Assembly: GCA_951406725.2 (NCBI GenBank)
Contig: OX597830.1
Span: 27,900,001 to 27,964,000, forward strand
Length of the DNA: 64,000 bases
Source: Octopus vulgaris
Lineage: Eukaryota
Reading direction: 5' to 3'
Shown here: positions 1 to 34,960 of the stretch, one piece after another
Position numbering within the stretch: position 1 is the first letter of the stretch
How the letters are laid out: every line of letters starts with the position of its first letter
The notes under the pieces: model-generated
The model's database searches: none
What the model was told of the DNA's origin: nothing
Seen by the model: the letters and a program-made list of their open reading frames with translations, nothing else
Made by a program: the position numbers and the translations under genes

Positions 1-514
1 TATATATACAAGTAATTCTATTTGCATTTGTTGTTATGCTTTCTGCAATGTGTATCACTCTGACTCGACAAATGTGTAAAATTCTGGCTGTAGGAACAGA
101 TTAAGAAAAAAATGTGGTTGGGGCAGGAACGAAATCCCTCAATAGAAAACTAGAAAAACAAAAATTTAAGTATAAGAAACGTATAAGAAAGCAAAATATT
201 GGTAAGTTTTGAATTGGTAATATATTATTTCCCTTCTAATCAATCATTTTACGGGGGACAGGATTGGAACTAAACAGAAATGAAATGAATGCGTATATAT
301 ATGTAACGACACATATGCAAACATGTATATGTATCACCATGCTTCAATCCATTTATCCATACGTACACACACACGCGCACACACGGATATATATATATAT
401 ATATACACATACATTTATACATATGTATAATATATGCATATGTATATGTATATATGTGTGTGTGTATACATAGACAGGCGTACATACATATATTACATCT
501 ATGCATATATCTAC

Positions 515-545
<31 letters not shown>

Positions 546-1006
546 GATATATCTATCTATCTATCTGTCTGTCTGTCTGTCTATATATCTATGATATATA
601 TATATGTATATATATATACATATATATATGTGTGTGTGTGTGTGTATAAGTATATGAAGACACACACACATATATATACACATGTAATATGTATATACAT
701 TGCATATAGAAAGTGGGTGAAAGAATGAGGTAAGCATAGATGTAGAGATATACCATGTGCAGCTTTAAATCTATCGGCTATTTGAATAAGAGACATGTTT
801 AGATTTATAACCTGCTTAACCAGAAATGTACCTCCAAAAATACAAACCTAACAAACCTATGCACATACCCAACTTTTCTGTTCTCTCACTTCCGAAGAAC
901 TATAAATATTCAGTATTTCTAAGTTTTGCATTAGTCCTAATTCATAGTTACTTTCTTAGACACATATATACACGCACGTAGATATATACGTATCTATAAG
1001 TATATA

Positions 1007-1095
<89 letters not shown>

Positions 1096-1111
1096 ACATA
1101 TATACATATGT

Positions 1112-1144
<33 letters not shown>

Positions 1145-1149
1145 CATAT

Positions 1150-1390
1150 AAACATAGATACATATATAAAAAATTCAATATCGCACAAGAACGCTAAACA
1201 TCCAGATAGACGATACAAAGAAAACAAGGACGTGTCATTCGGAGTTTTCTTTTATCAGTCGAGTTCCAGATTATCTTTACAATTTCGGCTTGTTTAACTC
1301 GAGATTGCTCCAATCTGGCCAGTCCCAATGAAAAACTAAGCTAAGAGCATTAGATTCCTTAGAAGAAATCACCGAATGTATACAAAACTT
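1150..1390 (-). mobile_element. Fragment of a dispersed repeat, same family as 45765-46237 (probably Penelope-derived non-autonomous element)
   Basis: aatttcggc..ctcgagattgctccaatctggc..aaaaactaagctaagagcattagattcctt matches the reverse complement of ~45855-45940; embedded in (TA)n. Confidence 0.7.
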
Positions 1391-1436
1391 ATACATAAAT
1401 ATACATATACATATATATATAAATATATATATACGC

Positions 1437-1523
<87 letters not shown>

Positions 1524-1573
1524 TAAATATTTGTTGTGCAAGATTTTTTATGTGAAGTCGTGTGTTGAAACAG

Positions 1574-1804
1574 ATATTGTTATATTTCGGAATGGTCATA
1601 TTGCCAGTTTAGCCAATAAAAACACACGCACTATATATTTGTTGTTATTTTGCTTCAGTGTTATTTATTTTTCACATTAATCTTAATCTTAAAATAAGTT
1701 TAAGATTAATGTAAAAAATAAATAACACTGAAGCAAAATAACACCAAATATATAGTGCGTGTGTTTTTATTGGCTAAACTGGCAACATGACCATTCCGAA
1801 ATAT

Positions 1805-1812
<8 letters not shown>
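1574..1812. repeat. Near-perfect foldback palindrome, ~117-bp arms, 3-nt loop
   Basis: atattgttatatttcggaatggtc...ttaatctta / aaa / taagtttaag...gaccattccgaaatataacaatat, about 4 mismatches; a single arm recurs at 47766-47886. Confidence 0.95.
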
Positions 1813-1850
<38 letters not shown>

Positions 1851-1898
1851 GTGAAAATCAGACGTGAAAATCAGACAAGGTTGGAATTCCTTTTATTA

Positions 1899-1938
<40 letters not shown>

Positions 1939-2299
1939 ACGTGTATATATTTATATATATATATATATATCTGTGTGTGTGTGTGTATGTATGTATGTGT
2001 GTGTATGTGTGTGCGTGTATCTGCATGCGTTTGTAATCATACGTGCTCACATATATATGTTTGTAGTCTCCCTTTCAAAATTGGCACCTCGGAAATGTTC
2101 ACTCGAAAAGCCAACGCTCGATTCATACACATAGGTTTACATGAAGGTCTATTTAATTGTAGATAGATGAGTGAGTTAGTGTGAGCATATTTGAAAGTGT
2201 GTGTGTGTGTGTGTGTGTGTCTGTGGACATATGTTGCGTGTGAATATATAAATTGTTTCTATCTGATATACATACATCCATAGACATACTGCATGCTAG

Positions 2300-3575
2300 C
2301 TAGCCCGAATGTTTTGCATCTTTTCACTGTTCCATTAATGAAAAGTAAAAGTAATTTCCTTTTCGCTCTTTCACCGATTGCTGAGAAACCAAGCATCTTA
2401 AGATTGTCGTTGACTCTCTCACACAATGCGCAGCCTCAATAAACACACTTGTATAAATATAAAGATATGATGCTGATCACATAGACAGGTCCCTCATTAA
2501 CCCTGTATGGATATTAAAAATTTCTCTTATCTTTTATATATCTGCATGCACATATATGTGACCGTCTGATGGATAACAGATCTCTACTATGTAACATGTC
2601 TTTTTCTTTTACCAAATATCTTATCTGTTGTGTGGCTCCAGTATTTTAATTTGGTGTTTTGCCAAGAGCATTCTACTGCTATATGCTTCTACATCACTGC
2701 ATCTTCTTATGTTTTGATCTTTCTACAAAACTCTTTGACTGTTACATCATACCTAATCGAGATGTCAAGATAGGAATGTTGCTTATGTTGTGTTTCACAT
2801 TTTCAATGTCAGTTCCACGGACTCCGCACAGGCAGCCATATCTTTTGTATGCATCGGGTATTTTTTTTATCTCTTGTTCCTAGATTGCATTTGTAAGAGC
2901 TAATATATTCTTTCAAAGTGGAATTTAACATAACGTTTGTTTTCTTCAAAGTAAAGGCTTATATAACGGTTGTTAGTAGAAGATAGCATACTTTCGTTAT
3001 ATCTGTTAGTACTCAGCTTACGTTTTTTGAGAACATGGCTAATGGGAACTTTAGCCTTATTGCTAGAAGGCTTTTCATCAGATGTGTATGAGTGTATGTC
3101 GCTTGTCTCCAGTAATGAAATACTTTTCAGGTAGAACCTTTATACGCCAAATGGGGCTTTCTTCGATAAGGAGATTTGAACCATGAATCCATTCCGACAC
3201 CGCTTTCGAATGAATATGATGCGACATTCAAAAGCTGTTGCAAACAAGGTTAAGCTGCTGTCTCCGCGTGTTCATTGTAGGAAGAGACAACCAGTAAAAT
3301 GTCTAGTGATTGATAGCAGATTTAAAGTTTAATATCGATAGACCAAATCTCATTTAACGTCCAATTGAATAACCCAAATATTGGTATGATTGCTGCTACA
3401 CCAAAACTATCGTACCCCTTATGAAATTGTATCTTTGAGGATCATATTCATTATGACCAACCCTGGTAACGCTTTCTTTACTACAAGTGAAATAATACGA
3501 TATATTAACCTCAATTCCCGTGTATATGTAGCATTTCTCATTACATTGTGGATGAATATTAAATCTATTAATCAC
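2300..3575 (-). mobile_element. Heavily decayed RLE-type non-LTR retrotransposon (R4/Dong-like): RT C-terminus, zinc knuckle and restriction-like endonuclease
   Basis: Broken minus-strand translation gives ordered motifs CYIYTGIEVNISY (YxYLG-like), IIPIFGLFNWTLNEIWSIDIKT, AFECRII, LCGV..IENVKHNIS (CCHC remnant), HNR.D, IVEICYPSD, NLKMLGFS, GTVKRCKTF; many stops and frameshifts. Confidence 0.75.
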
Positions 3576-3584
3576 CGTGATCAC

Positions 3585-3851
3585 CGTGACCGACCGGGCT
3601 ATCAGATGTTGCTACAAATCGCTGGTCACAATGCGCTTCGCATTGTTTTAACCTTCAAATGACGCCAGAAGAAAGAGTGAAAGAAAGTTGTGGTGAAAGA
3701 GTACCGCAGGGATCGCCACCACCCCTTGCAGGAGCCTCGTGGAACTTTAGGTGTTTTCGATCAATAAACACTCACAACATCCGGTCTGAGAATCGAAACA
3801 GCGATGCCACAACCGCGAGTCGGCTGCCCTAACCACTGGGCCATTGCGCCT
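3585..3851 (-). mobile_element. tRNA-derived SINE (family D)
   Basis: Minus strand begins aggcgcaatggcccagtggttagggcag (A box), then gtttcgattc (B box); same body as 58238, 59268 and 59890 copies. Confidence 0.85.
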
Positions 3852-18223: not shown

Positions 18224-18600
18224 CATATATAACTGCTGTGTTAACGCTTACTTTACGCTATATATATACATATATAACATACATACATATATATATATAC
18301 ATATATAACTGCTGTGTTAACGCTTACTTTACGCTAAAATATCTTCTAGAATAAAGTATTATTCTTGCAATAAATTCATATTCCTGAAACTGTAGTAAAG
18401 ATTGTTTGCCACCATAATATGGCAGCCTTTGTGTGGGACTAATGTTGCTGTAATTTAGTCCCAGGAGATATCGTCTCCAGTTGGCTATACGCCAGGGTCT
18501 GTGTCCTTATATTTTCGAACAAGGAAATCTAGCACCTCCATTCAGCTTAAAACAATATCTATGTATCGTGATTTGAGCATTGGGGTCCCTCCTTCAAAAT

Positions 18601-18858
18601 ACCAATGGGGTTGATATAATCGAGTCGCCCCCTCCCTTCACAATAGCTATGTGGTCGATAATATCGAGTAGTCCCCTCCCTCACAATAGCACTGGGGTCG
18701 ATATAATTGAGTAACTCCCTCCCTCAAAATAACACTGGGGTTGATATAGTGAAGTAACTCCCTTCCTCAAAATAGCACTTGCGTTGACAAAATCGAGTTA
18801 CCCCCTCTCTCAAAATAGCAGTGGGTTCGATCTAATCTAGTAGCTCCCACCTTTCACC
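18601..18858 (+). repeat. Minisatellite, ~6 x 43 bp, derived from the SINE family B 3' segment
   Basis: Unit consensus gcactggggtcgatataatcgagtaactccctccctcaaaata; compare gcactggggtcgatataattgac at ~12583. Confidence 0.9.
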
Positions 18859-32254: not shown

Positions 32255-32990
32255 GCATGGCACCTTGGGCAAGTGTCTCCTGCTATAGCCTCGGGCCGAC
32301 CAAAGCCTTGTGAGTGGATTTGGTAGAGGGAAACTGAAAGAAGCCCGTCGTATATATGTATGTATATGTGTGTGTGTGTATATTTGTGTGTCTGTTTTTA
32401 CCCCACTAACATCGCTTGACAACCGGTGCTGGTGTGTTTACGTCCCCGTAACTTAGCGGTTCGGCAAAAGAGACTGATAAAATAAGAGCCCTCGTTATTA
32501 TGCAAATAGAGGAAATTATCTGTAAATATAATATGTGACAATTATTCGGTAGCCATATAAAACTCCGAGTTTGGGGCGTCGGGGCGGAAACCCATGCCGC
32601 TATCTCTTCAGTTATCCAGCCATCGGAAAAATCGGAGCAAATTTTCGGAGCAAATTGTCACATATTATATTTACAGATATGTATGCATGTATGTATGTAT
32701 GTATGTATGTATGTATGTATGTATGTATGTATGTATGTATGTATGTATGTATGTATGTGTGTGTGTGTACATATATTTGTGTGTCTGTGTTTGTCCCTCC
32801 GACATCGCTTGACAACCGCTGTTGGTGTGTTTACGTCGCCGTAAATTAGCGGTTCGGTAAGAGTGACCGATAGAATAAGTACCAGGCTTACAAAGAATAA
32901 ATCCTAGGGATCGGATTGTTTGACTAGAGGCGGTGCTCTAGCATGGCCACGGACAAATGACTGAAACAAGTAAAAGAATAAAAGAATACA
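32255..32990 (+). mobile_element. SINE family A interrupted by a hammerhead-bearing insert (32488-32680), with the SINE 3' segment on both sides
   Basis: catcgcttgacaacc..ttagcggttcgg..gata.aataag at ~32410-32487 and again at ~32803-32879. Confidence 0.8.
32550..32622 (-). ncRNA. Degenerate type I hammerhead ribozyme motif, same family as the 34.1/34.8 kb copies
   Basis: ggctggataa-CTGAAGA-decayed stem II-CAAA (G12>C)-CTCGGAG-TT-ttatatggct, followed by the same aattgtcacatattatatttacagata tail as 34813. Confidence 0.6.
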
Positions 32991-33824
32991 AATATAAAAT
33001 ATATGTGAAACAAGACGAGACCATCAGTCGACGGATGAAGGACAAAAGCGAAAACAAATAAGATGAAATGTGGACATACGAACAACTTGAAATAAATAAA
33101 CAGAATAGGACCCTTGGGGCAGACAGAAGACAAAAATATGGTTAACGCCTGGGGGAATATCCTAAAGGATTAGAAACAGAAGGTGAACAGAGGGACTGGG
33201 AAACATGTTGAAAGTGGGAGTGAATATACGACCAGTCGCTTCGACGGTCGACTTGAAAAGGAAAAGTGACTAAAATATGACGATGAGCATGGGTCACGTG
33301 TCAGTTGTAGTAAAGAAATAAATAGTGGAAGGTAGAGGGAGAGATAAAGAGAGCAGTGAGAAATAAGGAGAGCAAAGAGAAACACAGAGAGGAGAAAGGA
33401 ACTGCAGAGGACGAGAACAGATAGCAGTACAGGAGTGTAGAGAGGGATGGGAGAAAGGAAGAGAGAGTGAGGAAGAGAAAGAGCGAGAGAGGGAGTAAAG
33501 CAGAGAAAGGAAGGGAAAGGAAGAGAAAAGAAGAGAAAGCATAGGAAAATACGTCGTTTGAAAATATAAAAAACATGGCGTTCCATTAAATGATAAATTG
33601 TAGAACATATAATAAAGTCACAATCAAAAGGAAAGCACGCTGAAGGTCACCAAATCCTCGTCAGTTATCGGCCACAGGCTCAAACGCAATTTTGCGCCTT
33701 CGACGGTAATATTCGAACCCGTGGTGGCACCGGCAGCAACAAGCCGCCGGGAAATAGTTAAAACAGAGAGAATGAAAATGCGATATGTGCGCGTGCGCGC
33801 ATGTGTGAGTATATTCATACATAC

Positions 33825-33876
<52 letters not shown>

Positions 33877-34088
33877 TAATATAGGATAAAATTTTTCGAA
33901 AAAAATTTTTTTATCAATGGCCAGCATATTACAAAATACCTTTAAAGGTTAAATTCATAAATAACTTATAAAAAAGGACAAAAGAAAAAACATTCTAACG
34001 CCAAATAGGCCGAAAATGGACAAATTTTCAATAACCATTATAATTTATCACATGTATATCTTTACATATATGTGACAATTGGTTTGAA

Positions 34089-34154
34089 AATAAAACGAAG
34101 AGTTTCGGATGCCGGAGCTGAAGTCTGCTCCGGCATCTCATCAGTTATTAAGAC
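34089..34154 (-). ncRNA. Type I hammerhead ribozyme motif, core intact
   Basis: taataa-CTGATGA (34144-34138)-GATGCCGGAGC/agacttca/GCTCCGGCATC (perfect 11-bp stem II)-C-GAAA-C-tcttc-GTT-ttatt. Confidence 0.8.
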
Positions 34155-34567
34155 AAACGCTATGAAAAAAAATAAAACCGTTGAACAAAGGGAAATTACT
34201 CCAATAGTCGTGGGGAAAGTAATACTTCGTTCATAGAATCCGCATATGCACACATATACACACACACACATACACGTACGCACACACGTACACACACATG
34301 TATGTATATATATATCTATATATATATACTCATACACACGTGTACATATACATACAAACACATATATATATATACATATGTATGTCTACGCATATACGCA
34401 CATACACACACATGTATACCCATGCACGCATCACTACGCTCATATTAACATCTCTACACGCACACACACAAACATACGCGGATCGTGCATGGGTATATGT
34501 GCGTGTATGCGTAGACATATATATGTATATATGTGTGTTTGCATGTATATGGACACGCGTGTATGAG

Positions 34568-34605
<38 letters not shown>

Positions 34606-34735
34606 CATATGTGTGTGCGTGTGTGCGTACATGTGTGTATATGTGTGCATATGCAGATTCTATGAACGAGGTATTACTTTCTCCATGCCTATTGGAGTAA
34701 TTTCCTTCTATTCAACTTTTTTTTCCATAGCGTTT

Positions 34736-34804
34736 GTCTTAATAACTGATGAGATGCCGGAGCAGACTACAGCCTCGGCATCCGAAACTGAGTTTTATTA
34801 TGAC
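34736..34804 (+). ncRNA. Type I hammerhead ribozyme motif, core intact
   Basis: Stem I GTC.TAATAA/TTATTA.GAC; CTGATGA 34746-34752; stem II GATGCCG../..CGGCATC; GAAA 34784-34787; AC-tga-GT; predicted GUU cleavage after 34794. Confidence 0.82.
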
Positions 34805-34960
34805 AACCAACTAATTGTCACATATTATATTTATAGATAAATTCCTTTATTTTCCATAATATCGAAGTCTCATTCATTCTTTTGTTGTCATATTATTATT
34901 CTTGATATATATGGAAAATAGAAATTAGAAAATCCTAAAATAATTTTATCATAATCATTT

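Follow-up and report, generated by a model that had tools for sequence, protein, structure and literature searches.

At 34057..34900 of a 64,000-nt stretch of the Octopus vulgaris genome (the window; positions are counted from its first nucleotide) lies a palindrome that carries two hammerhead ribozyme motifs on opposite strands, both facing outward. An earlier note on this DNA proposed that the pair serves the host, each ribozyme being masked by the opposite arm so that a surrounding intron escapes self-cleavage. Is the pair a co-opted device of this kind, or is it what a retrotransposon left behind on inserting? The genome concerned is large (2.8 Gb) and rich in microsatellites.

The inverted repeat is real. 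In an alignment of the two arms, positions ~34066-34428 pair with 34484-34823 around a 55-nt loop. CTGATGA starts at 34746 on the plus strand and at 34144 on the minus strand, and leads in each case into a hairpin, after which come a single additional C, then GAAA, then a GUU triplet. The outward pair of cores described in the earlier note is thus confirmed, and the features read as follows.

34057..34483, minus strand: left arm, a 5'-truncated 3' end of an element that is most likely Penelope-like, made of TG/TA-rich 3' UTR and a hammerhead.
34083..34156, minus strand: left type I hammerhead, core whole, 11-bp stem II, extra C, stem III palindrome broken, stem I of 5 bp.
34429..34483, minus strand: 55-nt loop of the palindrome, element 3' UTR reached by the left arm only (arm and copy alignments).
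34484..34900, plus strand: right arm, a 5'-truncated 3' end of the same element as the left arm, with the long, tailed 3' end.
34734..34806, plus strand: right type I hammerhead, core whole, one mismatch in stem II, extra C at 34783, stem III 2 nt short.
34824..34900, plus strand: 'tail' of about 65-77 nt, at the right end only (from the comparison of tailed with untailed copies).

The arms meet head to head at 34483/34484 with no spacer. Longer natural copies (L002, L029) align to 34483-34057 on the minus strand, while the clean match between the arms stops near 34066; the left arm ends as the short, untailed family 3' end, 96 nt beyond the core. The right arm aligns to L002, L012, L020 and L029 up to about 34900, with its end 157 nt beyond the core, so that the element runs on past 34824, where the feature had been closed. 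Nor are the arms bordered by microsatellite, as had been supposed: unrelated copies share the TG/TA-rich upstream DNA in register and have varied 5' cut-offs, and this DNA is therefore part of the element, its 3' UTR.

A palindrome may also be created by a hairpin or chimeric read during assembly. Artefactual palindromes would have near-identical arms, whereas those of the window differ at ~10% of sites plus indels and possess unlike 3' ends; moreover, the pair obeys the one-tail rule that is described below for other pairs. That no contig from the public sequencing runs joined an arm to its flank would fit an artefact, but these contigs were short paralogue pieces only. The probability that the palindrome is an artefact of assembly is very small.

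The window holds further repeats. Positions 33810-34051 are the end of another dispersed repeat (2,184 first-look candidates) that adjoins a (TA)n run and breaks off at the end of the left arm; inverted or tandem pairs account for several of its copies, and it may be another Penelope-like family. A search for an empty site or a target-site duplication found none, the left flank being this repeat, cut at 34051 and not resumed in the right flank. A third, separate 3' end, from a related subfamily and with a decayed hammerhead (GAAA without its G), lies 1.5 kb away from the left arm, with which it shares its orientation (32484-32630, minus strand). A putative SINE-like repeat, met again in many of the loci retrieved, has two copies in the window, at 32353-32486 and 32746-32879, which are 82% alike. 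An array of about six 43-nt units occupies 18586-18848.

How much of each ribozyme survives? The motifs had been called intact, which is true of the cores but not of stem III, whose palindrome is disrupted in the left copy and reduced in length in the right one. Likewise, the 11-bp stem II ascribed to both is perfect in the left motif, where it is completed by a private C>T change, but contains an A-C mismatch and a G-U pair in the right one. The extra C before GAAA is present in both, as claimed. Stem I of the right motif consists of 6+5 bp around a U-U mismatch. Both copies thus display the type I core (CUGANGA/GAAA/UH) and three stems, stem III being damaged, and the predicted cut sites fall after 34794 (plus strand) and after 34094 (minus strand). 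Each motif folds better than shuffled sequences (z -3.5 to -4.7). The core pattern is weak evidence by itself, since a loose version of it matches 7 places within the window. The stems covary between subfamilies, with four pairs changed on both sides and 13 covarying cells against 5.3 after shuffling, a count that is drawn from 10 related sequences and is not a probability. The check with hammerhead covariance models that the earlier note had suggested left the motifs unrecognised: Rfam reported no hammerhead at gathering score, and none among 82 matches at E<=10. The Rfam matches obtained by E-value were discarded as microRNA models lying on simple repeats.

The state of stem III bears directly on activity. 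In the family, this stem is the palindrome CUC-U-GAG, which closes on a single base and hence can pair only as a dimer. The left copy reads CUC-U-UCG (two changes) and the right copy has lost 2 nt. The calculated stem III self-duplex is worth -7.9 kcal/mol in a near-typical copy (L022), -4.2 in the right motif and +0.3 in the left. The predicted probability of the monomer fold is 2e-5 to 7e-5 in the two window motifs, against 1e-3 in L022; being nearest-neighbour estimates, these figures take no account of tertiary contacts. As to the extra base, it is a trait of the lineage: it is C in 21 of the 23 copies with a letter at this position, and U in a young sister family introduced below. The hammerhead is the element's standard dimer-type motif, and would work, if at all, in tandem transcripts of the full element.

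The arms belong to a dispersed family. A 191-nt probe from the right arm yielded 1,463 first-look candidates, and the 40 of these that were scored were 86-92% identical to it. Two exact patterns gave 80 and 79 matches, 10 of them common, from which capture-recapture estimates ~600 copies, probably an undercount. Copies are truncated at varied 5' points and finish in one of two ways on the 3' side: the tail is present in 15 of 29 other copies, while 14 stop short of it, 13 of those in TA-rich DNA. Relative to the column majority, the left arm differs at 9 of 143 positions and the right arm at 8 of 146, whereas left and right differ from each other at 15 of 141 (~10%), plus indels. They share only one departure from the family majority, and 26% of random pairs of copies are equally close. 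The arms have thus decayed independently. Two observations count against reading the locus as a scar, namely that both cores are whole and that both arms (5-6%) are nearer the majority than the family mean (7.7%).

Whole cores in both arms might be taken as a sign of selection. However, 12 of 27 copies retain all 11 core positions, and two whole cores at one locus are therefore unremarkable. After trimming, decay is 5.5% in the core and 7.9% elsewhere (p 0.19); this count and the untrimmed one both omit L062, L075 and L081 (3 of 30 loci), where the element ends just past the anchor. Selection on the core had been considered on the untrimmed figures (4.7% versus 10.9%, p 0.0007) and was abandoned, since that signal arose from the inclusion of non-homologous ends and was lost once these were trimmed.

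To which element do these 3' ends belong? Two longer copies, L031 and L032, run upstream into broken frames for an endonuclease (GIY-YIG-type) and a reverse transcriptase (RT). Searching with the L031/L032 protein uncovered the young sister family (23,391 candidates, of which 150 were scored, many with 717-residue open frames). It comprises thousands of copies, about 99% alike in DNA, with intact 708-aa ORFs (for instance L048, L049, L050, L051 and L055); over their best stretches, the L031/L032 remnants are 71-82% identical to the sister protein. L032 also contains a LINE-type element unrelated to the palindrome, whose intact frame of 1,062 residues (512-3697, plus strand) encodes an AP endonuclease domain and an RT domain.

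The sister ORF has the motifs RWK and DKT, a CxCx5C linker and CxxC/CxH, and lacks the CCHH cysteines, a combination that defines the Hydra clade of Penelope-like elements (PMC8557442, section 11). In the C-terminal region, a putative GIY-YIG endonuclease, Y..Y-x-G, R, H, E and N are conserved in 98-100% of 120 aligned rows, and two cysteines between the GIY- and YIG-like motifs are found in none of the 120. The structural model of the protein (pLDDT 93.9) matches reverse transcriptases, telomerases taking ranks 2-7. A single ORF with a telomerase-like RT, a trait of EN+ Penelope-like elements, is present in the sister family, and RT remnants are present in that of the window. By sequence, no Pfam family matched the element proteins, PF01541 (GIY-YIG) gave a weak, below-cut-off match in one of eight homologues, and searches of PDB sequences with the element protein returned nothing significant. 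The sister protein has 992 homologues, and none of the 120 listed bears a name. An upstream pLTR (a partial tandem) is found in L048, L049 and L050, and the family shows the tandem and inverted-truncated arrangement of Penelope-like elements. Its unit measures 2,593 nt, within the <3 kb of the Hydra clade; TA-rich DNA follows its ends, and a hammerhead is present. The window's own family displays most of the clade features, with DKT seen in L031, while RWK was seen in the sister family only. The window element is therefore most likely a Penelope-like retrotransposon of the Hydra clade, a clade call that rests on motifs, and its family is probably an undescribed member of that clade. The earlier suggestion of a link to Penelope-like elements and to dimer-type type I hammerheads is right.

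The hammerhead of the sister family has diverged in its own way. It carries CCGA in place of CUGA, with 3,852 exact matches against 565 for CUGA. Six CUGA loci were inspected and are 14-18% diverged from the young 3' UTR, and CCGA consequently looks derived. A U4C change weakens hammerhead activity in vitro, yet a viroid that carries it stays infectious (PMC3088659). A sister-lineage 3' end with the CCGA core lies ~10 kb upstream of the window (L034:132-226, minus strand).

Comparison with described systems shows both likenesses and differences. The Hydra-clade elements Penelope-13_HM, Penelope-3_HM, Hydra-1_aJap and Hydra-1_oBim (Craig et al. 2021, PMC8557442) resemble the octopus elements in protein motifs, a unit of ~2.6 kb and (TA)n targets; inverted copies truncated on the 5' side occur there too, as does a one-ended tail. 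Their hammerheads (File S2 of the same source) likewise occupy a 3' position; the palindromic stem III, actc-N-gagt, has a one-base loop, and the cut-site base is U. The octopus motif differs by its longer stem II (11 bp) and by the unpartnered base before GAAA, its tail is about 65-77 nt long versus 30-40 in those elements, and the long TG/TA-rich 3' UTR is a further feature that sets the window's family apart. On the hammerhead lines, which were the lines compared, the motif differs from that of Hydra-1_oBim and so belongs to another family. The minimal Penelope hammerheads of metazoans (Cervera and de la Pena 2014, PMC4209133) are similarly of type I, with a palindromic stem III, a long stem II and a predicted dimer, but their unpaired base lies between positions 9 and 10.1 and not, as here, between 11.1 and 12. 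A parallel in the 3' ends is offered by the Poseidon element PAc of the green anole (Frangieh et al. 2024, PMC11167929): a tail separates its two 3' ends, its targets are AT-rich, and a hammerhead lies close to the element boundary. PAc is nevertheless of another clade, and its hammerhead overlaps the start codon, whereas that of the window element sits in the 3' UTR, well before the next ORF.

With the identity of the arms settled to this extent, the masking model can be assessed. In a read-through transcript the antisense arm would indeed come first, as had been argued, and 86-87% of the sense motif is predicted to pair with sequence beyond the motif. That the ribozyme thereby shields a host intron, to be released by editing or folding kinetics, is a different matter. 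Whole cores in both arms, the predicted masking (0.86-0.87) and the fact that inverted repeats are ADAR targets, with lizard Penelope elements heavily edited (PMC5625713), all speak for it. But neither copy has an undamaged stem III, and folding as a monomer is improbable; since each strand offers only one sense copy, there is probably little to mask. Cleavage of a single minimal motif from Schistosoma was undetectable (PMC4209133), and the anole motif required its protein, with RNA-seq ends absent at the cut site (PMC11167929). Independent divergence of the arms argues against a maintained pair, and so does the expectation of hundreds of such pairs in the genome. As for the host intron, no host exon and no exon-like ORF was found in the window, and Pfam searches over 84 kb (the window extended by 10 kb at either end), made with the longest 148 of its 189 filtered ORFs, gave three matches, all below cut-off; short exons or a very long intron are possible at this locus. 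Co-option of the pair as a masked ribozyme is accordingly very unlikely, and its role in protecting an intron is not borne out.

Similar pairs recur elsewhere in the genome. In the window's family, the 28 sites provided by the first 30 of 79 anchored loci had seven outward partners and one inward. Among the 150 scored protein matches of the sister family, 12 outward pairs, one tandem and no inward pair were counted, where 0.04 are expected by chance. The first 100 of the 3,852 sister-motif matches, a non-random sample that covers the first 72.5 Mb of C1, fell into 63 clusters, with 29 outward, seven tandem and one inward; extrapolation gives about 1,100 outward junctions of the sister family in the genome. 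Outward pairs are thus a routine insertion product of these elements. The arrangement itself is already in print: dual motifs ~100-700 bp apart on opposite strands have been reported (PMC4209133), inverted 5'-truncated copies and one-ended tails are described for Penelope elements (PMC8557442), and File S2 of the latter lists, for Penelope-13_HM, an inverted 5'-truncated copy with a motif on each strand.

Recurrence of short hammerhead-tipped palindromes is also what would be expected of a unit that moves as such, either a non-autonomous retrozyme or a MITE with hammerhead-bearing terminal inverted repeats. However, the junction point is different in every pair, the spacings range from 21 to 3,827 nt, no tandem array of the unit exists in the window, and copies run into the ORF. 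Mobility of the palindrome as a unit is therefore extremely improbable. Non-LTR retrozymes were considered and rejected, as these consist of tandem units that each have a hammerhead and no ORF, whereas the window has a head-to-head pair and its element an ORF upstream. Those described in bioRxiv 10.64898/2026.07.22.740005 share type I hammerheads from Penelope repeats, but form head-to-tail arrays, in contrast to the head-to-head truncated ends of an autonomous element seen here. The palindrome is very probably one old Penelope-like insertion, comprising two 5'-truncated 3' ends joined head to head, and the resulting scar is probably functionless now.

The remaining question is how one insertion gives two ends. 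Young pairs are informative in this respect (20 of the 29 outward junctions were fetched and added to four earlier loci, with L125 giving one arm only). Of 23 young pairs, 21 have exactly one tailed and one untailed end (p 3e-5 if the ends were independent); the same one-tail pattern holds for nine of 11 pairs of the window's family, including that of the window, in which the right end is tailed and the left untailed. In the series L106-L124, all 19 scored outward pairs on C1 have one tailed and one untailed end. Arms diverge by 0.53% within pairs and by 1.5% between pairs (8 long pairs), which indicates that both arms of a pair derive from one source. Among 19 junctions, 10 show overlaps of 1-5 nt, two are blunt, six contain fillers of 2-25 nt and one is ambiguous.

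These patterns can be accounted for by priming on both target strands, one for each 3' start point. The RT-endonuclease of the element would nick both strands of an AT-rich site, and each nick would prime a cDNA at one of the two 3' start points, giving one tailed and one untailed end. Both cDNAs would stop early and be joined at their unfinished ends. With such a junction the two hammerheads necessarily face outward, and two-strand priming followed by the joining of unfinished cDNAs would explain together why pairs face outward, why they have a single tail and why their junctions vary. A precedent exists in another clade: the Penelope protein of PMC11167929, a predicted dimer, cleaves both strands, extends them, and begins synthesis at two RNA positions, one on either side of the tail. 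Judging from the genome patterns and from that experiment, two-strand priming reasonably likely formed the pair.

The same insertion could have been born otherwise, from a single primed cDNA that folded back and copied its own start, or from two separate insertions at one site. In favour of such a birth are the common source of the arms in young pairs (0.53% versus 1.5%) and the 1-5-nt overlaps at 10 of 19 junctions, and folding back predicts that the tailed arm extends further 5', as it does in 12 of 18 pairs. In the other six, the untailed arm is the one that extends further 5', by as much as 946 nt, an outcome that a simple fold-back cannot produce; here, as in the window, the loop is on one arm and the tail on the other. 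Independent insertions, for their part, would not yield 29 outward pairs to one inward or a single tail in 21 of 23 pairs. A birth by either of these routes is thus somewhat unlikely, although it would leave the identity of the locus the same. A literature search on inverted Penelope copies and template switching, with most subscription papers outside its scope, gave no match, and one on twin priming listed a review of human elements; the two-priming model and the extra hammerhead base may already be in print.

The locus itself is a real but ordinary retrotransposon scar. A transcript that crosses it would form a hairpin of ~350 bp, open to ADAR editing as a bystander. More generally, when outward hammerhead pairs are met in invertebrate genomes, the first reading should be that of a Penelope insertion scar. 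The making of inverted Penelope structures and the role of the hammerhead are both called open in PMC8557442, and both questions become testable in this genome, given thousands of ~99%-alike copies with intact ORFs, the one-tail rule and the CCGA core. A tentative extension, which I consider possible but on balance doubtful, is a general rule by which a dimer of the Penelope RT-endonuclease primes both strands at two 3' start points and leaves one tailed and one untailed end in nearly every inverted insertion, the youngest wave having seeded on the order of a thousand hammerhead-tipped hairpins as the core drifted to the weakened CCGA. If this were true, the lineage would offer a natural test of Penelope spread in which self-cleavage plays no part, and would supply the editing machinery with much double-stranded RNA.
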